The position numbers and the translations under genes were made by a program. A stretch of DNA of 37,915 nucleotides. Origin: a virus. Its lineage: Duplodnaviria > Heunggongvirae > Uroviricota > Caudoviricetes. The stretch is from the IMG/VR virus record IMGVR_UViG_2778261269_000005, positions 1-37,915 of that record. One strand, given 5' to 3'. This document shows, in pieces, positions 2,983 through 33,396 of the stretch. Numbering within the stretch: the first letter of the stretch is position 1; each line of letters begins with the position of its first letter. Below the pieces are notes generated by a model. That model was not told where the DNA came from. It was given only the letters and a program-made list of their open reading frames with translations, and did no database searches.

Positions 2983-3315
2983 TCATACCACGACCTGTTC
3001 AAAATTTGCGGTTACCGTGACCCACAGCGCCCCCACACTGGACGACCATTTACGGCAGACCACCCGGACAGGTGTCCAGCCATAAGGCGGTGTCCACTGA
3101 AACGCCCTGACCCCACCGTGCCGGGCCAGAAACGCTTCCAGCGCCTGATGCTCCCCTTTACGGACACGGATCGTGACACTGTACGTTGGCAACAGAGGAT
3201 TCAGTCCCGCCGGACGACGCTGTTCATAACCATCACCCAGTTTAACTGTCACCACTTTGGGCTCTGAATCCACCTTCATATCCGGACGGACTTTCCAGCT
3301 AAATATCTCCATCAC
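2983..3315 (-). CDS. M: tail tip protein M
   Basis: 110-aa ORF, lambda M-like; ATGA overlap with the H stop. Confidence 0.85.
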   Translation of the reverse strand: MMEIFSWKVRPDMKVDSEPKVVTVKLGDGYEQRRPAGLNPLLPTYSVTIRVRKGEHQALEAFLARHGGVRAFQWTPPYGWTPVRVVCRKWSSSVGALWVTVTANFEQVVV

Positions 3316-6300
3316 CGGTATACTCCGCTTAACTGCCCGCCATCACGGGACTGTTGTTGCATAAAATCTTCTGCAGCCCTTTTCCCCAGGTTGTAAACCG
3401 CCTGCATGACTTCCGGCCCAATCTGTCCGTTCTGGCCATCATTATTGATCTCGATGTTGTACTGCGGCGCAAACATCACCATCCCCGAACCACAGGTCGC
3501 TGCCACAACACCCAGCTTACCGTCAGCCCCCCTGCGCAAGGGCAGGATAGCCTCAGGCCCCGCTTCACCCATCACCCCCGCGCCTTTTGCAAAAGCAAAA
3601 AACGTCGGACGGTTAACCACCGTGCCACTGTAGCGACTCAAATCAGCAGACTGATAAACACCACCTTCTGCATTGGTTTTCACATCACCGAAATCAAACC
3701 CCATCACACTGCCAATCCCTTTGACAGCCTTCATCATGGTTGCCTGCGCCAGAATTTTTGCCATATCTGACAGCACAGATGAGGTGAAAGATTTGAAATT
3801 GAGTTTGCCGGTGGTAACAAAAGTTGCCAGACCATTTCCCATACTACTGAAAGCAGACATAAACATCTGTTCTGCAGTCCCGGCAGCATTATCCGCGTCG
3901 GCAGTAAAATTCATGAACGCGCGTTTTGTACCGTTTCTCCACTCCCCCTGCGCAGCATCCATCTGTTGCCAGTAGCGGCGATTCTCATTCAGTTTCCGGT
4001 TCAGACTGTCTGTCAGCGTCTGTTCAGCCTTCCGGTATGCGTCAGAACCATACGAGCCTTTCTGCTTACTGTCCCGTTCAAGTTGCTCCAGCTGTTGCTG
4101 GTACTGCTGTCGTAGACGCAACTGCGACTGGTACCGCTGCCGTTGCTGATCGCCCATTCCTGCCATGGCAACGTCCAGATCGTGTTGCTGACGCTGTGCG
4201 CGCTCTTCCTCAGCCAGTTGACTGGTCAGCTGAATGGTCTTTTTCTTCAGGTCATTGAGGGCAGTCTGCTTCTGCAGCTCCTGCTGTTTTGCATCCAGCA
4301 GCGTCAGTGCCTGAATCAGCTCATCCTTGTGAGCCAGTACACTTTTTTCATCTGCTGTCAGTTTTTTACCGGCTAAATCGCTGATACGCTGCTGAAGGGC
4401 CAGAAGCTGTTTATGCGCTTCTGTCATCCTTTCAGTAGCCATGCCCGCTGACTGTCTGGCGGCGGCAATCTGTCCCTCCACCTGCGCCTGTTGCTGGCTG
4501 TACTGCAGTAATAGCCGGGTGGCCTCATCATTACGGGTGGCAGGCGTTTTTTTCTTAATGGCTTTTTCGTAACGTTCATTTTCACGCTGTATCGCTGCGT
4601 CCCTGACCGCCTGATCGGCGTACTGCATGGCATTAATACGCGCAATTTCACGCTGATGTCGTGCTGCTTCCGTTTCGTTCATCCGGTTCAGCGCGGCATT
4701 TTCAGCATTCCGGCGTTTCTGCTGCTCCTGATAATTTCGCTCAGCCTGCTCTTTTGCATCCTGCAAATCCTGCTGGCGTTTTCGCTCTTGCAGCGCATCC
4801 AGTTGTTGCTGATCGTATTCCCCCGTGGTGGACGCCTTAGTCCACGGAAATTTCTTCGCCCGCTGAATTTTTTCCTGCAGCGACGCAATCTGCGCATCAA
4901 GGGAATCTTCCCGACCAATGTTCATGGCCGCATCCCAGAACTGCTTCCACCAGTCAGACAAGGTTTGCAGCGTACTGCCCAGCGCATTGAGGTTATTATC
5001 AATATCCGACGTACGTTTACCGGTTTCCTCTGCCAGTGCAGACATGGCTATCCGGGCTGCGTCACTGGTGCGCCCCTGCTCTCCGAGCACACGGATCTGT
5101 TCAAGCTGGGTGGCTGTCAGAAAATGCAGTTCATCATCCAGCGCCTTCGCAGCACTGACCGGATCATCCTTCAGCCGTTTAAACTGACTGATGGTGTCAC
5201 TGACAGACTGCCCTACCGAGCGTTCCATCTGTGCGGCAGCTTTCGCCACCATACCAATATCGTTACCGTGAAATGCACCGCTCCCCACTACCTGCGCCAG
5301 TGACCCCGCCATGGCATGTTGCGTGATGCCATTACCGGAAAGATTTTTACTGAGCGCCCACAACTGCCCGGCTGTCACACCGGCATAGTGTCCGGTGAGC
5401 TCAAGCTGCCGGTTAAAGGCTTCGCCTTCTTCCTGCCCCTCCATCCAGGCTTTACCCAGACCAATAACCGCAGCAGTGATCCCTCCGATAACTCCCCCCA
5501 CCGCCAGGCCTTTCGGAGTCATTAATTTATCAATCCAGCCGGCACGGTTAGCCAGGGTGATCCCGGAGCCACGAAGCGCACCGAAATTACCTCGCGCCAG
5601 CTCACCAATCATGACCCCCAGCTCCCGACGGGCTGCCGCACTTTTCAGTCCCAGCGAATGTGTGGTGTTTCCGGCTTTCTCCATTTTACGGATGTACACC
5701 TCCGCGGCACTGCTGCACCCAAGTTGTGCCGCCTTTGCCCGAAGCAGTTCCGTCGTGGTCATTTTCTGGCGACTTGTCTGTTCTTTCAGCTGACGAATAA
5801 ATGCGGTTTTCTGGCGGGTGGCCGTTTCCTCTGCCTGTGTCAGAACGCGGGTTTTCGCTGTCACCTCAGAAATCAGGGCCAGATAATCCTGCTGAGCAAT
5901 CCCGCCACTGTTTCTGGCCTGTCGGATCTGCTGCTGAATACGCTGTAACTCCTGCAGCCCCGCACTGGCCTGTTTTACGCTGTCGATCTGACGATAAAAT
6001 GCGGCAGCCATCTTATCCTGCGCCGCAGCCAGCGCAGCCGCCTGAACCTGCTCCTCCCGCATCTGACGACTCAGGGCCTCCATCCGCAGGCGCGCCCTTT
6101 CCACATCTTCCGCCAGCGAAACATGCCCCTGCGCATGCTTCACCACGGCCTGAGTCTGTATCACCGTCGCGCTGGCAGCCTGTTTCTGACTTTCCTCAAA
6201 CCGTTTCATACGGGCTTCGGCCCGCTCCGCCTCCCTTGCTGTACCATTCAGCAGATTTTTTACACGCGGAAGCTGCTCTTTAAAATCGGCGGTATCAATG

Positions 6301-6335
6301 CTTAAATCAATGACAAGGTCAGCAATCTGGTCCAA
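3312..6335 (-). CDS. H: tail tape measure protein
   Basis: 1007-aa ORF, long coiled-coil Q/R/E-rich centre, conserved lambda-type C-terminal region; sits between G-T and M. Confidence 0.85.
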   Translation of the reverse strand: MDQIADLVIDLSIDTADFKEQLPRVKNLLNGTAREAERAEARMKRFEESQKQAASATVIQTQAVVKHAQGHVSLAEDVERARLRMEALSRQMREEQVQAAALAAAQDKMAAAFYRQIDSVKQASAGLQELQRIQQQIRQARNSGGIAQQDYLALISEVTAKTRVLTQAEETATRQKTAFIRQLKEQTSRQKMTTTELLRAKAAQLGCSSAAEVYIRKMEKAGNTTHSLGLKSAAARRELGVMIGELARGNFGALRGSGITLANRAGWIDKLMTPKGLAVGGVIGGITAAVIGLGKAWMEGQEEGEAFNRQLELTGHYAGVTAGQLWALSKNLSGNGITQHAMAGSLAQVVGSGAFHGNDIGMVAKAAAQMERSVGQSVSDTISQFKRLKDDPVSAAKALDDELHFLTATQLEQIRVLGEQGRTSDAARIAMSALAEETGKRTSDIDNNLNALGSTLQTLSDWWKQFWDAAMNIGREDSLDAQIASLQEKIQRAKKFPWTKASTTGEYDQQQLDALQERKRQQDLQDAKEQAERNYQEQQKRRNAENAALNRMNETEAARHQREIARINAMQYADQAVRDAAIQRENERYEKAIKKKTPATRNDEATRLLLQYSQQQAQVEGQIAAARQSAGMATERMTEAHKQLLALQQRISDLAGKKLTADEKSVLAHKDELIQALTLLDAKQQELQKQTALNDLKKKTIQLTSQLAEEERAQRQQHDLDVAMAGMGDQQRQRYQSQLRLRQQYQQQLEQLERDSKQKGSYGSDAYRKAEQTLTDSLNRKLNENRRYWQQMDAAQGEWRNGTKRAFMNFTADADNAAGTAEQMFMSAFSSMGNGLATFVTTGKLNFKSFTSSVLSDMAKILAQATMMKAVKGIGSVMGFDFGDVKTNAEGGVYQSADLSRYSGTVVNRPTFFAFAKGAGVMGEAGPEAILPLRRGADGKLGVVAATCGSGMVMFAPQYNIEINNDGQNGQIGPEVMQAVYNLGKRAAEDFMQQQSRDGGQLSGVYR

Positions 6336-6633
6336 ATCTCATTCCTCCCGATATACCTTCCCCCAGATGCATCAGCTCTTCATCCGTGCGTTCAGGGATC
6401 ACCCTGTCATCCGTAACCAGACTGAAATCATCCGCCGGAATACGTTCACCGGACACCATCTGAACCATCAGCGACTTCAGTGTGGAAATCTGTGCATCCA
6501 GCCAGATATCCCCGAAACTCTGCTTCCGGAAGAAATCCCCCCATTCGCCCAGTTCTGACGCTGACATTTCTGATAACATCCGCCGCCAGTCTGCCCGCCG
6601 GAACTCACGGGCAAGCTGCATCACAAACTGCAT
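6319..6633 (-). CDS. T: T segment of the G-T tail assembly chaperone (expressed by -1 frameshift from G)
   Basis: ORF in the -1 frame relative to G, open across the G stop; slippery-like GGAAAAG (plus-strand 6648-6654) lies 3 nt before the G stop. Confidence 0.65.
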   Translation of the reverse strand: MQFVMQLAREFRRADWRRMLSEMSASELGEWGDFFRKQSFGDIWLDAQISTLKSLMVQMVSGERIPADDFSLVTDDRVIPERTDEELMHLGEGISGGMRFGPDC

Positions 6634-18405: not shown

Positions 18406-18789
18406 TTAGCGCTTCAACTGAAAGTGAGGCCCGTCTTTCAGCGTTTTCCAGTCCCCGCCCCATTCGATGGCGATTCCCAACTCTGCGCCAGCCTGCTTAA
18501 ATGCCTGCGCGATTTTCTCGTACAGAGGCCAGTCCCATGACACCTGGCTGCCAACGTAGGCAACAACATCCACCGCATCACCGGTCAGGTGGCGGCTGTT
18601 CATGGTCTGGCTTTTCCCTTCCGCGACCAGCTGCTTCTGGCGATACTTACTGCGCAGGCCTTCCGTAATACCGAAATCAACCTCCGTCAGCTCCAGCGCA
18701 CGGCGAACAACAGCAACCAGCTGTGGTTTGACGCCCTCCAGATTTTTCTCACTTCGACGACTGAATCTGAATTTACCGGGCATACTCAC
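18406..18789 (-). CDS. endolysin, peptidase M15 family (L-alanyl-D-glutamate peptidase type)
   Basis: 127-aa ORF with SRHLTGDAVDV and GIAIEWGGDW, typical of zinc M15 cell-wall peptidases; ATGA overlap with the preceding membrane protein. Confidence 0.75.
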   Translation of the reverse strand: MSMPGKFRFSRRSEKNLEGVKPQLVAVVRRALELTEVDFGITEGLRSKYRQKQLVAEGKSQTMNSRHLTGDAVDVVAYVGSQVSWDWPLYEKIAQAFKQAGAELGIAIEWGGDWKTLKDGPHFQLKR

Positions 18790-19073
18790 CTCCGTAATGA
18801 AAGGATTTTTGATACGTTCCCGCGTGCTCGTATCACCAGCACGCAGAACACCAGGTTAATCAGGACGACCAGCCAGTTACCGGGTGGAAAGCGACCACAC
18901 AGATAACAAAGCGGCGCAAAGGCATAAAGCAGCATCAGCAGCCAGGCCAGCCACGACATCAGCGGTTTATGTCTCGACTCACCACGACGATAAAAAAAGA
19001 GCGTCAGCACGATAACCGTGCTTAACACCACATTCAGTAATCCGGGAAGGTTACTTAACATTACCGCCTCCAC
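18786..19073 (-). CDS. small membrane protein of the lysis cassette (holin/antiholin-like)
   Basis: 95-aa ORF with 3 predicted hydrophobic helices, between holin and endolysin. Confidence 0.55.
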   Translation of the reverse strand: MEAVMLSNLPGLLNVVLSTVIVLTLFFYRRGESRHKPLMSWLAWLLMLLYAFAPLCYLCGRFPPGNWLVVLINLVFCVLVIRARGNVSKILSLRR

Positions 19074-19440
19074 CCCGCAGACGGGAGAACAGCCCGGATA
19101 CCAGCGATGCGATATCCTGCTGGTGGATGAATGAGAGAATCTTCACCGACACCACCGATACCAGTACCGCGCAAAGCGCGTCGAGAGATGTGCTGTGAAG
19201 ATTCAGTTTTTCAACCAGGTAAGACGCCATCACATCCGCCCCCAGCACGCCAACAATGAACGACACCAGAAAATGCGCTGCCACACGCCAGACAGAAATC
19301 TGCTGTGGTATCGTGGCCACAAACAGCGCCCCTGCGAATGCACCAAACACAATCCCGAAATCCGTTCCGGTAAACAGCCCGAATACTGTCGCCCCGCCGA
19401 GCGCCGCAGCCGTGCCGGAACCGGACAAGGGTTCAGACAT
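19051..19440 (-). CDS. putative holin
   Basis: 129-aa ORF with several Gly/Ala/Val-rich hydrophobic helices, AGGAGA RBS, first gene of the lysis cassette. Confidence 0.55.
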   Translation of the reverse strand: MSEPLSGSGTAAALGGATVFGLFTGTDFGIVFGAFAGALFVATIPQQISVWRVAAHFLVSFIVGVLGADVMASYLVEKLNLHSTSLDALCAVLVSVVSVKILSFIHQQDIASLVSGLFSRLRGGGGNVK

Positions 19441-19460
19441 ACGTTTTTCTCCTGTAAATA

Positions 19461-19481
19461 AAAAAGGGCCTCTGTCGGCCC
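19461..19481 (-). terminator. terminator-like hairpin just upstream of the holin RBS
   Basis: GGGCC-N6-GGCCC stem-loop followed on the minus strand by a T-run. Confidence 0.45.
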
Positions 19482-19912
19482 GTAAAAAAACACCCCGTCA
19501 AAGGCACCCGCAGATACCTTTTGTGTGGCGCTATCTGATGTGATGTGCGCCAGGCGTGGCGCGGATATGAAAAAGGCCCGCCGCAGCGAGCCATATGCAT
19601 AGGTAAAAAAAATGCCCACACATAAGGCGGGCTAACGCAATGTAATGATGAAACAGAGTTTACTTGTATAGATGTTATAAGAATGCGCCGTCAGCCTGCT
19701 GTGCAAACTGGCAAATCGTAGGCCCGGAAACAGACAACGACGCATTCTGGTATCACCTCATCCCTGCAACATGCAGGGATGACTACAAAAAAAGCACTGA
19801 AACTGTAGGCGGTCAGGTCTACAGAATGAAAAACAACAAATCCACCTGCCAGGTCTGTTCTTCACGAAAATTCGCCAGTGCTGATAATAAAGCTATGACT
19901 CATCAGTTTTAC

Positions 19913-19989
19913 TGGAGAGCGGGTGGCGAGAATCGAACCCACATCATCAGCCTGGAAAGCTGAGGTAATAGCCATTATACGATACCCGC
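19913..19989 (-). tRNA. diverged tRNA-Gly(UCC)-like gene, possibly a pseudo-tRNA
   Basis: Minus strand reads GCGGGTATCGTATAATGGCTATTACCTCAGCTTTCCAGGCTGATGATGTGGGTTCGATTCTCGCCACCCGCTCTCCA: cloverleaf with GGTTCGATTC T-loop and UCC anticodon, but a 7-66 mismatch, wobbles in the T-stem and no clean CCA. Confidence 0.55.
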
Positions 19990-21403: not shown

Positions 21404-21601
21404 TCACTGAGGAAGGCGTCTGTAACAACCGAACTGATAATCTGCCAGACCCGCCATAACAAGCTGGGTCAGTATTAACTGGCAGCGTTCGCGTGAAAGG
21501 TAAGTATTCTGCGCAATTTCCCCAACTGTTGCCGGTTCAGTGACGCTTAATTCATTAAACACCACTCTGGCTGTTTCGGTCATATCCTGCTGTTTTAGCA
21601 T
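21404..21601 (-). CDS. hypothetical small protein, possible winged-helix DNA-binding
   Basis: 65-aa ORF between the membrane moron and the methyltransferase; PATVGEIAQNTYLSRERCQLILTQL is HTH-like. Confidence 0.35.
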   Translation of the reverse strand: MLKQQDMTETARVVFNELSVTEPATVGEIAQNTYLSRERCQLILTQLVMAGLADYQFGCYRRLPQ

Positions 21602-21774
21602 GTCTTTTTCTCTTTATTGGTTAACGTGACATACCAATAACTCTTGTCGAAAAAGCCAGCAAGCTGAAAGACCGGTATTAATAACCACCTGCACATTTTA
21701 TGTACCGAACCATTTTTCTGGCATAAAAAACCTCTCAATGGCGGGCGGTAAAAATCTTTGTTACTCAAGAAATT

Positions 21775-22488
21775 TTAACGCACTCTGACTGTATTAATTT
21801 CAAAATCATTAATATTTCCGCTATTAAATATAACGAATTTCTTACCCCCACTCCTGTATGATTTCGATAACACCAGACGAGCATCATAACGCGCAATAAT
21901 GTAATACCATACATTCTCATAGTGGATCGCCTGATATTCCCTCTTAAACTGTGGTTTGTACCAACCGGCAATGAGAGAGAATGCCCAGAAATAAATCATA
22001 AACCCAGCCATCATGAACTCAATTCGGTGATGGCGAATAAAAGACATTTCCGAAAAACATTTGACTGAAACAAGTCTTCTTCCAGACCTGACAAAAAGCG
22101 TGATTGTAAAGGCAGCAAGAATGCAGAAAATCAGTACATCTGGCTCAACATGCTGATGAATTACCGAAAACTCCAGAACAGGTGGAATAAAAAGCAGCAA
22201 TATCGCGAGAAAAAGCCGGATAAAACTCAAATTTTGTATATTGCGCTTTTGTTTTATGCCCAAAAAGAAAATAATACCAACTCCCCATCCAATAAGGAAT
22301 ATAACGATAACTGTCACAGCATAAAACAAACTTCGTGCTACATCATCGACACCAGCCCCGACAACCCACCATGGAAAGCCATAGTAAAATGAAGTACCCC
22401 ATCCATAGAAATAAGCGCTTCCCCATCCTAGACAGCCCATATAAGCAACAAAAAGTGAAGAGTTTCTGAGCAGAGCACTGTCATCCAT
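21775..22488 (-). CDS. hypothetical polytopic membrane protein (AT-rich moron downstream of Q)
   Basis: 237-aa ORF in a markedly AT-rich island; aromatic-rich N-terminus (WGSAYFYGWGTSFYYGFPWWVVGAG), several hydrophobic helices, about 100-aa soluble C-terminus. Confidence 0.55.
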   Translation of the reverse strand: MDDSALLRNSSLFVAYMGCLGWGSAYFYGWGTSFYYGFPWWVVGAGVDDVARSLFYAVTVIVIFLIGWGVGIIFFLGIKQKRNIQNLSFIRLFLAILLLFIPPVLEFSVIHQHVEPDVLIFCILAAFTITLFVRSGRRLVSVKCFSEMSFIRHHRIEFMMAGFMIYFWAFSLIAGWYKPQFKREYQAIHYENVWYYIIARYDARLVLSKSYRSGGKKFVIFNSGNINDFEINTVRVR

Positions 22489-22629
22489 AGTAACACCATT
22501 AACAACTCAAAAATATCAACACATATTACATAACAAATTGGATTCCATGCAGTCAAGGGGCGTCATTGATGGAGAAAGTATTGGCACAATCATCATCACG
22601 TTTAATGTCTATGCCATTTTTTTGGGGAT

Positions 22630-22653
22630 AAAAAAACCCGCTCGGTCACGGGT
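22630..22653 (-). terminator. tR'-like intrinsic terminator
   Basis: ACCCG-N8-CGGGT hairpin followed on the minus strand by T7, about 50-65 nt after the putative start. Confidence 0.5.
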
Positions 22654-22742: not shown

Positions 22743-23414
22743 CTATGAAAATGCCGCCTTTTGTTTTGAACGTGTTCCCTCCACCAACAATAAAGCTTCA
22801 CCATCCAGCCGATGAAAAATGTGTTTCATTGCAACCCAGTGACCAGTAAATGTCTTGGACCAGTTTTTGGTTGTTACTCCCACCAGTAACGCCAGTTCCT
22901 GGTATTCGTAACCTTCCCCACCAAAAAGCTCAGCTTTTACCGCCTGCGCCGCCAACCAGATCAACGTCTTCAGGCGCACCAGAGTTTTTCCTGCAATTTT
23001 TCTGGTACCGGATTGAGCATTAAATTCAGTCCACGCCCACTGCGTTATCGCGATCTGATGCTCCCAGCAAATGCTACCGCTGTAACACCACAGCAGCCAG
23101 GCTTTATGATGTTCTTCAAGAGACAGAACGGCGCGTCGCCATGATGATGTCGAAAACTCAACCGGACTGACCAGGGCAATTGATGAACCTTTCGCCAGCG
23201 ATTGCTTTCCCGGGATCGGTGGATTATCCAGCGTTACTATTTTTCCAGTGACCTTATCGCGGTACCGGATTTTTTTACGTCTGTAACGCCCTGTATTGAA
23301 CATGGCATTCTCCTGCCAGGCTTCAAGCTGACCTTTTGTTGCTCCACTCAAATCAGCGGTGGCGATCATGAGCTGCTCACGCACAAACTGTAAATACTGG
23401 TTATTCATGCGCAC
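22743..23414 (-). CDS. putative late-gene antiterminator (Q-like, QuuQ/YdfT-type)
   Basis: 223-aa ORF between rusA and the pR'-like promoter/terminator; synteny with quuQ-ydfU of Qin. Family not verified. Confidence 0.45.
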   Translation of the reverse strand: MRMNNQYLQFVREQLMIATADLSGATKGQLEAWQENAMFNTGRYRRKKIRYRDKVTGKIVTLDNPPIPGKQSLAKGSSIALVSPVEFSTSSWRRAVLSLEEHHKAWLLWCYSGSICWEHQIAITQWAWTEFNAQSGTRKIAGKTLVRLKTLIWLAAQAVKAELFGGEGYEYQELALLVGVTTKNWSKTFTGHWVAMKHIFHRLDGEALLLVEGTRSKQKAAFS

Positions 23415-25169: not shown

Positions 25170-25185
25170 CTGTTGTCGTCAACAG
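25170..25185. promoter_or_regulatory. palindromic operator-like site in the parDE promoter
   Basis: CTGTTG-TCGT-CAACAG palindrome overlapping a TTGTCG ... TATCAT promoter-like pair upstream of parD. Confidence 0.4.
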
Positions 25186-25235
25186 GCAACGTGCTATCAT
25201 CAAATGGTGTTCTATCCTACTCCGTGAGGTTTACC

Positions 25236-25493
25236 ATGCGTACAACCCAACAATTCAGCATTACATTAACTAACGAAATGGCTGACATGGTGCGCGCCCG
25301 TGTGGCTTCCGGTGCCTATGCTTCAGAAAGCGAGGTCATTCGTGAAGGGCTTCGCGCACTGAATGAGCGCGATAAAGCAATCGAAGCGTGGTTAACGCAT
25401 TCAGCCGCCCCCTCTCTTGATTCTATCCGCGAAAACCCAAACAACGGACGCTCCATTTCACAGGTTCGCGCCGCGATTCGATCCGGGAAGTAA
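25236..25493 (+). CDS. parD: type II antitoxin, ParD family (RHH)
   Basis: Start set at ATG 25236 (GAGG RBS): MRTTQQFSITLTNEMADMVRARVASGAYASESEVIREGLRAL... Confidence 0.8.
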   Translation: MRTTQQFSITLTNEMADMVRARVASGAYASESEVIREGLRALNERDKAIEAWLTHSAAPSLDSIRENPNNGRSISQVRAAIRSGK

Positions 25494-25498
25494 TCTGC

Positions 25499-25798
25499 AT
25501 GACATATGAAGTCATCATTACTCCTGAGGCCGAACAACAAATAATCAACCTGCACAGGTATATAACGGAGAAAGCAGGGAACGTCATTGCTGACAATTAT
25601 GCCAATGCGCTTCTTGATTATCTTGATGGGTTTTCTACATTCCCGCATCGGGGCAATAAACGCGATGATATTCGCCAGGGGATGCGGGTAACTCATTTCC
25701 GCCACAGAACGATTATTGCTTTTGCCGTTGATAGCAGAAAAGTCTTTATTGTCGGTATCTATCATGGTGGGCAAAGTTATGAAACCGATTTCTTATAA
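25499..25798 (+). CDS. parE: type II toxin, ParE/RelE family
   Basis: 99-aa ORF 5 nt after parD; ...RQGMRVTHFRHRTIIAFAVDSRKVFIVGIYHGGQ is ParE-like. Confidence 0.8.
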   Translation: MTYEVIITPEAEQQIINLHRYITEKAGNVIADNYANALLDYLDGFSTFPHRGNKRDDIRQGMRVTHFRHRTIIAFAVDSRKVFIVGIYHGGQSYETDFL

Positions 25799-33338: not shown

Positions 33339-33396
33339 TTTCTGGTGACGTTTGGCGGTATCAGTTTTACTCCGTGGCTGCTCTGCCGCCCTTTTT
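33339..33396 (+). ncRNA. dicF: DicF small regulatory RNA
   Basis: TTTCTGGTGACGTTTGGCGGTATCAGTTTTACTCCGTGGCTGCTCTGCCGCCCTTTTT matches remembered DicF nearly base-for-base, with 3' hairpin and U-run, upstream of dicB. Confidence 0.85.

Follow-up and report, generated by a model that had tools for sequence, protein, structure and literature searches.

A predicted membrane protein gene of the TfpB/STM1630 family in the late region of a lambdoid prophage

The locus and the inserted unit

The DNA considered here covers positions 1–37,915 of the IMG/VR virus record IMGVR_UViG_2778261269_000005, and this whole stretch is referred to as the window. Its gene content marks it as a Rac/Qin-like lambdoid prophage. 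A lambda-type integrase, a RecE-like exonuclease VIII and the small RNA (sRNA) DicF are all encoded in it, and the minus strand carries nearly all of the phage genes. The gene under study (positions 21775–22488, minus strand, ATG start) encodes a 237-aa protein of the TfpB/STM1630 family with a predicted location in the inner membrane. The assignment is based on a match to phrog_1521, homologues with the Pfam label PF27470, a structural model, topology and codon substitution rates. On the same strand the gene is preceded, in order, by DUF968, RusA and Q genes, a promoter and a hairpin with a U-run. It is followed by a 65-aa open reading frame (ORF), a DNA methylase gene, tRNA-Gly, two holin-family genes and an M15 endolysin gene.

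The gene lies in an inserted unit of 897 bp (positions 21733–22629, minus strand). Similarity to PPompW-type phages that have the same type of Q stops exactly at the terminator end, position 22630; in these phages tRNAs are found directly after Q. Homology to Stx2 phages resumes at position 21732, with 131 nt upstream of the 65-aa ORF held in common (positions 21602–21732). Because the flank homologies end at 22630 and 21732, the approximately 897 AT-rich bp between them represent an insert. The GC content of the unit is 0.387 compared with 0.504 for the whole window, and a value as low is found in only 0.3% of 897-bp segments. The GC content at third codon positions is 0.37 in the ORF and 0.50 in the adjacent Q gene. 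An earlier note on this DNA, made from the letters alone, had described an AT-rich moron directly behind a Q-dependent late promoter, and the flank homologies and base composition bear this out.

The ORF is intact. The ratio of nonsynonymous to synonymous substitution rates (dN/dS) is 0.11–0.17 in comparisons with four homologues, i.e., those of a plasmid of enterotoxigenic E. coli (ETEC), phage 434, a prophage with the gene at the stx insertion point and a Shigella plasmid. Copies from Salmonella and C. rodentium are unusable for this purpose since synonymous sites are saturated. These values show, at the level of codon comparison, that purifying selection acts on the ORF, and they rule out a chance ORF in favour of a coding gene under constraint.

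A moron in the Hendrix/Juhala sense is extra DNA of deviant base composition between genes that are adjacent in related phages, and this is what is found here. Of the further properties of morons, an own promoter has a candidate in a conserved footprint with a weak -10 hexamer, which is described below. An own factor-independent terminator was also looked for, and no convincing hairpin with a U-run is present 3' of the stop codon (z of -1.0). It is nearly certain that the unit is a single-gene moron, situated between the Q/PR'/tR' module and the module of the 65-aa ORF and methylase, with a product that belongs to the TfpB/STM1630 family (PF27470, PHROG 1521).

The earlier note had also assigned the gene to the slot where Stx phages carry stx. 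The cargo region, from Q to holin, is indeed the same, but the insertion point is a different one: in Stx2 phages the 65-aa ORF, the methylase and the tRNAs come first, and stx is downstream of them. The exact stx position of Stx2 phages corresponds to positions 19441–19916 (minus strand), which carry no ORF cargo in this window.

Family assignment

The match to phrog_1521, a PHROG of unknown function, has an E value of 2.7e-85 and covers residues 17–237. PF27470, with the label TfpB, is a precomputed annotation on the 97%-identical protein P0001 and on all 104 database homologues; membership in PF27470 is by way of these labels of homologues. A near-identical copy in E. coli (99.6% DNA identity) has the RefSeq name "STM1630 family protein". 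By BLASTP the window protein is 29% identical to the tfpB product of Moraxella bovis over 233 aa, end to end (E value of 5e-26), and the Moraxella cluster has the IMG name 'protein tfpB'. Family alignments show two motifs that are present in the window protein, AY.YGWG..YG[FY]PWW..[IV]ARSL near the N-terminus and Y-K-P...YY[IV]L...[IV]LS in the C-terminal beta domain. An exhaustive profile search of 1.84 billion representative proteins yields only 76 clusters, all of one architecture. Local Pfam, NCBIfam and PADLOC scans of the window protein and 48 family members give no meaningful match.

The earlier note did not recognise the family. It is, however, already catalogued under the PHROG, Pfam and RefSeq names given above and is present in phage 434. 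The window gene is an ordinary instance of it, and RefSeq already contains DNA that is 99.9% identical.

Promoter-like sequences and modes of expression

A promoter-like footprint belonging to the moron is found at positions 22527–22556 (minus strand). It consists of TTGACT (22556–22551), a spacer of 18 nt and TG-n-TATGTA (22535–22527). The footprint was compared in 82 loci (79 IMG/VR contigs, the window, phage 434 and an ETEC plasmid), the proteins of which are 56–100% identical. TTGAC is located 67–77 nt 5' of the ATG in 81 of the 82 loci, and at -67 to -69 in all but one. The sequence TTTGTTATG recurs with few substitutions in 81 of the 82 loci, and the spacer that precedes it is variable. 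The conserved TTTGTTATG reads as an extended -10 element, TG-n-TAT. The TTGAC-N18-TGnTAT footprint is conserved in 81 of the 82 loci, but the -10 hexamer (TATGTA) is weak. Among these loci is the Q-less copy of the ETEC plasmid, and similarity between the window and this copy extends from approximately 5 nt upstream of TTGAC to just past the stop codon. A Shine-Dalgarno-like GGTG (positions 22494–22497, minus strand) is situated 5 nt before the ATG, and the same place is purine-rich in homologues. The Salmonella member of the family has its own transcription start, and single-nucleotide changes in its -10 element silence it in ST313 (bioRxiv 10.1101/689075).

Immediately upstream of the moron is a Q antiterminator gene of the Qin/82-like type (positions 22743–23414, minus strand; PF06323 E value of 2.1e-90, phrog_304 E value of 3e-105). 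A consensus scan reveals a putative Q-dependent, PR'-like late promoter of sigma-70-like character, TTGCAA-17 nt-TATATT (22735–22707, minus strand). It is followed by a tR'-like intrinsic terminator, AAAACCCG-loop-CGGGUUUUUUU with a U-run (22656–22630, minus strand), which has an RNA folding energy of -22.4 kcal/mol and a z of -2.7. PPompW-type phages with this type of Q have the putative PR'/terminator module behind it as well, with 85% conservation. The order Q, promoter, terminator is the usual PR'/tR' arrangement, which is predicted here for this Q type.

Two modes of expression can be envisaged. In one, transcription would start at the gene's own conserved sigma-70-type promoter, so that the lysogen could express the gene. 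In the other, the gene would be the first of the Q-antiterminated late transcript and be read through after induction.

The downstream flank of the insert is a conserved, winged-helix-like ORF of 65 aa (positions 21404–21601, minus strand; phrog_331), which directly follows Q/tR' in related phages. Its winged-helix matches are weak. Together with the methylase gene it forms a module that is directly behind Q/tR' in Stx2 phages.

Predicted topology and fold

Residues 16–45 of the protein contain 12 aromatic residues and 7 glycines among 30. Hydropathy analysis shows four strong hydrophobic segments in addition to this Gly/aromatic segment. An AlphaFold (AF2) model made from an alignment of 48 sequences has a pLDDT of 80.6 and a pTM of 0.73. 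It displays helices at residues 4–36, 47–78, 89–111, 116–135 and 155–181, and then five strands within residues 184–235. The predicted transmembrane (TM) segments are TM1 10–36, TM2 47–78, TM3 89–111, TM4 116–135 and TM5 155–181, with the beta domain at 184–235. Counts of Lys and Arg over 48 family members fit the positive-inside rule for a cytoplasmic N-terminus and a periplasmic C-terminus. The model and these counts thus predict five TM helices, N-terminus in and C-terminus out. The aromatic and Gly-rich N-terminus and the hydrophobic helices had been pointed out in the earlier note. So had a soluble C-terminal domain; such a domain is present in the model, but it is small, at about 55 residues, and its predicted side is the periplasm and not the cytoplasm.

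Conservation is highest in TM1 (0.65) and in loop 1, the first periplasmic turn (0.62). The remaining membrane core and loops have values of 0.28–0.48, and the C-terminal domain, at 0.46, is not above several of the helices. The Gly/aromatic-rich hairpin of TM1, turn and TM2 and the C-terminal beta domain are predicted to be at, or to face, the periplasmic side. Gly175 is the sole residue that is invariant in the family, and the near-invariant residues are Ala, Tyr and Pro. A25, Y26, P39 and Y195 are among the conserved positions. The lack of an invariant residue of catalytic type argues against an enzyme. A lipoprotein signal was considered and ruled out; YMGC does not qualify as a lipobox, and its Cys is not a conserved residue. 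No fold or sequence relatives were found among PDB sequences (including a sequence-profile search), PDB folds or viral folds.

The Gly-rich helices might also be read as those of a small channel or transporter that oligomerises through them, which is considered very unlikely. Homology to a housekeeping transporter or a lysis protein, named in the earlier note as a finding that would speak against its proposal, was looked for and none was found.

Occurrence in phages and E. coli genomes

The enteric clade of the family is present on 192 IMG/VR viral contigs. By blastn the gene is found in 1197 of 5426 complete E. coli genomes (~22%), with up to four copies per genome. Among 60 IMG/VR loci that have RusA upstream, 55 show a gap of 800–1500 nt between RusA and the gene, which is the size of one Q gene, and the Q genes in this interval belong to at least three Q families. 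In other prophages a 55%-identical paralogue occupies the exact stx point, after the methylase and tRNAs, and LpxR, PmrD and NanS-p are found alongside.

Phage 434 and an O157:H7 prophage display the same order of Q, terminator and gene, with LpxR nearby. The phage 434 product CPT_434_68, annotated as 'putative membrane protein', and WP_001302581.1 of O157:H7 are of the same family, with 55.7% identity over the full length. As in the window, the gene is the first one after a PF06323-type Q and a terminator and is upstream of the lysis genes, and phage 434 has the same promoter-like footprint. The surroundings differ. DUF3927/TciB comes after the gene in 434 and O157, joined in 434 by a NanS-p esterase gene, and LpxR is upstream of Q; in the window the 65-aa ORF, methylase and tRNA-Gly come next, and LpxR is absent. 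A family member has lpxR, which encodes a lipid A deacylase, no more than a few kb away in four contexts that differ in arrangement (phage 434, O157:H7, loci L037–L039 and C. rodentium), one of which also contains PmrD.

The gene resembles stx, nanS-p, lpxR and pmrD in that it is cargo of foreign composition in the Q-to-holin late region and would be readable from PR' after induction; an own promoter is probably a further likeness. It differs in encoding an integral membrane protein and not a secreted toxin or enzyme, and, with respect to stx, in being inserted before and not after the methylase/tRNA module.

The position of the gene raises the question of a part in lysis, as a protein that modulates holin or sets lysis timing within the late operon. 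It encodes a membrane protein, is the first gene of the late transcript and is upstream of two holin genes. These encode Phage_holin_8 (129 aa) and Phage_holin_3_7 (95 aa) in tandem (positions 18786–19440, minus strand, with an overlap of 23 nt) and are followed by the M15-peptidase endolysin gene (18406–18789, minus strand). Three terminator-like hairpins (19466–19632) are found between tRNA-Gly (19917–19989) and the first holin gene. A lysis function is nevertheless highly improbable, as the protein has no similarity to holin, antiholin or spanin families in Pfam or PHROGs, the gene is missing in many phages whose Q and lysis cassettes are the same, and plasmids and chromosomes devoid of lysis genes carry intact copies.

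Superinfection exclusion or another anti-phage function was among the roles suggested in the earlier note. The protein would be made in the lysogen or early in late transcription and would keep out the DNA of other phages or make their infection abortive. A prophage moron that encodes a polytopic inner-membrane protein working without an operon partner fits this proposal, as does the abundance of the enteric clade on viral contigs and in E. coli genomes. One non-enteric prophage copy is next to HicAB and Ant, a typical accessory or defence region. This copy is on the only non-enteric viral contig with a family member (L051, positions 4986–5699), where the neighbours are the HicAB toxin-antitoxin genes and the Ant antirepressor gene, and it is not behind a Q gene. 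On the other hand, there is no PADLOC match (the best is AbiC, E value of 0.2). Purifying selection and the conserved elements at the periplasmic face do not form an arms-race pattern, and many intact copies are in virulence-linked sites outside phages, i.e., Shigella pINV, ETEC heat-labile toxin (LT) plasmids and the Salmonella sseJ locus. Copies in Pasteurellaceae are outside defence islands. An exclusion function is therefore held to be unlikely. Of the roles named in the note (exclusion, abortive infection and surface modification), the contexts outside phages point more to host-associated envelope cargo.

Copies outside phages

A 75%-identical copy is found on ETEC plasmids, about 870 bp from eltAB, the genes of the heat-labile toxin. 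In loci L032–L035 (positions 2987–5714) it is divergent to eltAB, STb is approximately 3 kb away and all are flanked by insertion sequences (IS). This group of genes may be what is left of a cargo block from the late region of a phage. In Shigella a 57%-identical copy is present in 106 plasmid records, and its neighbourhood on pINV consists of IS remnants only. The C. rodentium copy is beside LpxR, at a chromosomal locus equivalent to that of Salmonella.

STM1630 of Salmonella Typhimurium, from which the RefSeq family takes its name, is 47% identical to the window protein over the full length and has the same architecture. Like the moron it is AT-rich and horizontally acquired. It has its own promoter, where the moron has the promoter-like footprint. 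It differs in its location, which is not in a prophage but on the chromosome beside sseJ, between sseJ and frmRA. It is regulated together with Salmonella pathogenicity island 2 (SPI-2), and its expression is raised in macrophages.

A scan of species genomes shows relatives in Moraxella bovis, M. lacunata, M. equi and M. oblonga, in many Pasteurellaceae and in Conchiformibius. All of the carrier taxa are animal-associated. Neighbour-family enrichment covered 22 of 29 loci from Pasteurellaceae, Neisseriaceae and Salmonella (subsp. arizonae/diarizonae); no recurrent partner was found in these 22 loci, the neighbours being housekeeping genes only. Genomes of Aggregatibacter actinomycetemcomitans and Mannheimia species have two or three diverged paralogues, which stand singly with housekeeping genes around them, and one Mannheimia copy adjoins a YadA-type trimeric autotransporter adhesin gene.

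In the four Moraxella species the homologue is inside the invertible pilin cassette and adjoins a piv-like recombinase gene. It is 186 nt downstream of the pilin segment and co-oriented with it. Since the gene is inside the invertible pilin segment, expression of Moraxella tfpB may be phase-variable. Moraxella bovis/lacunata TfpB, which gave PF27470 its name, shares with the window protein the N-terminal motif and the C-terminal beta domain. It differs in length (261 aa) and in its location in an invertible type IV pilin locus and not in a phage. The M. bovis gene is a 261-aa ORF (L006, positions 491–1276); in M. lacunata NCTC10359 the gene is truncated to 195 aa (L011, positions 6001–6588). 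Literature searches found no published function of Moraxella TfpB and mostly returned an unrelated Acinetobacter ATPase and chemistry acronyms.

The Moraxella linkage suggests another role, that of a type IV pilin or pseudopilin accessory protein, which would bind to pilin-like subunits anchored in the membrane and influence how type IV pili, or the type II secretion pseudopilus, are assembled. The place of Moraxella tfpB, behind a terminator, is where other species keep pilin accessory genes (PMC11841053). One distant family member is two genes from a gene for an N_methyl (prepilin-type) protein, the ETEC copy flanks LT, which is a substrate of type II secretion, and the conserved face of the protein is predicted to be periplasmic or membrane-interfacial. 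The accessory proteins TfpY, TfpZ and FimB (PMC11841053) are comparable in that they are polytopic proteins of 235–245 aa with a periplasmic C-terminus and no catalytic motif, and they share with the Moraxella homologue the position downstream of a pilin gene. The predicted architecture is dissimilar, however. TfpY/FimB are modelled with three N-terminal TM helices, a mixed beta-alpha-beta periplasmic domain and a second three-stranded sheet, which the model of the window protein does not match; as compared by description, the window protein has five helices in place of three, and an all-beta domain of 55 residues in place of a larger periplasmic one of mixed alpha/beta type. The paper on TfpY/TfpZ/FimB does not mention Moraxella TfpB (PMC11841053). 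Moreover, pilin-like genes accompany the Moraxella homologues only; none is present in the window or within 6 kb of any Pasteurellaceae, Neisseriaceae or enteric locus, and the Moraxella linkage may represent a single evolutionary event. A pilin accessory role for the family is for these reasons improbable.

Proposed role

The reading put forward here, tentatively, is that the product acts, without being an enzyme, at the periplasmic face of the inner membrane and is cargo that serves the envelope or host fitness. It is based on the company that the genes keep (LpxR, PmrD, LT, SseJ, pilin and a trimeric autotransporter adhesin) and on the restriction of all carriers to animal-associated taxa. 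The protein would be neither an enzyme nor a transporter; more likely it would bind some component of the envelope, or serve as an adaptor for it, on the outer side of the inner membrane. It would be no part of the phage lysis or morphogenesis machinery. It would belong to the same class of host-associated fitness or conversion cargo as the products of the LpxR, PmrD, NanS-p, Stx and LT genes.

Several observations weigh against this proposal. No family member has an experimentally assigned function. Deletion of STM1630 in Salmonella gives no macrophage-replication phenotype, and the hypermotility attributed to STM1630 comes from a screen and is not among the phenotypes pursued after clean deletions. 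LpxR is 5 kb or less away in only 9 of 80 viral (IMG/VR) loci and was not found in the window. The Pasteurellaceae gene is alone among housekeeping genes without a recurrent partner, which makes guilt by association weak. The topology and the fold are predictions, the promoter is a sequence footprint with a poor -10 element, and a terminator was sought 3' of the ORF without one being found.

A broader proposal, which is doubtful at present, is that the TfpB/STM1630 family represents an unrecognised class of stand-alone, non-enzymatic modulators in the inner membrane. Their target would be a conserved step of envelope assembly at the periplasmic face, with a lipid-linked intermediate or the subunits of pilin or pseudopilin as examples. 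Lambdoid phages (including 434 and O157:H7 prophages), virulence plasmids of Shigella and ETEC, and Salmonella would alike have recruited them to change the cell surface.

Other features of the prophage

The DicF antisense sRNA is located at positions 33340–33391 (plus strand) with an Rfam score of 75 bits and is a marker of Qin/Rac-like prophages. A ParD antitoxin/ParE toxin pair (positions 25173–25493 and 25499–25798, plus strand; Pfam E values of 2e-7 and 5e-10) is flanked by the nin-like region and the replication genes and is encoded on the opposite strand from the phage genes around it.

Significance

The gene is a real feature and was correctly located by the earlier note. Lambdoid phages and the virulence elements of enteric bacteria often carry this "known unknown", which is among the commonest late-region cargo of E. 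coli lambdoid prophages. If its role were defined, thousands of genomes could be annotated, and it would become clearer what, besides Shiga toxin, lambdoid phages carry between Q and the lysis genes. If the family does represent a class of envelope modulators, this class would affect toxin secretion, host interaction or the exclusion of other phages.
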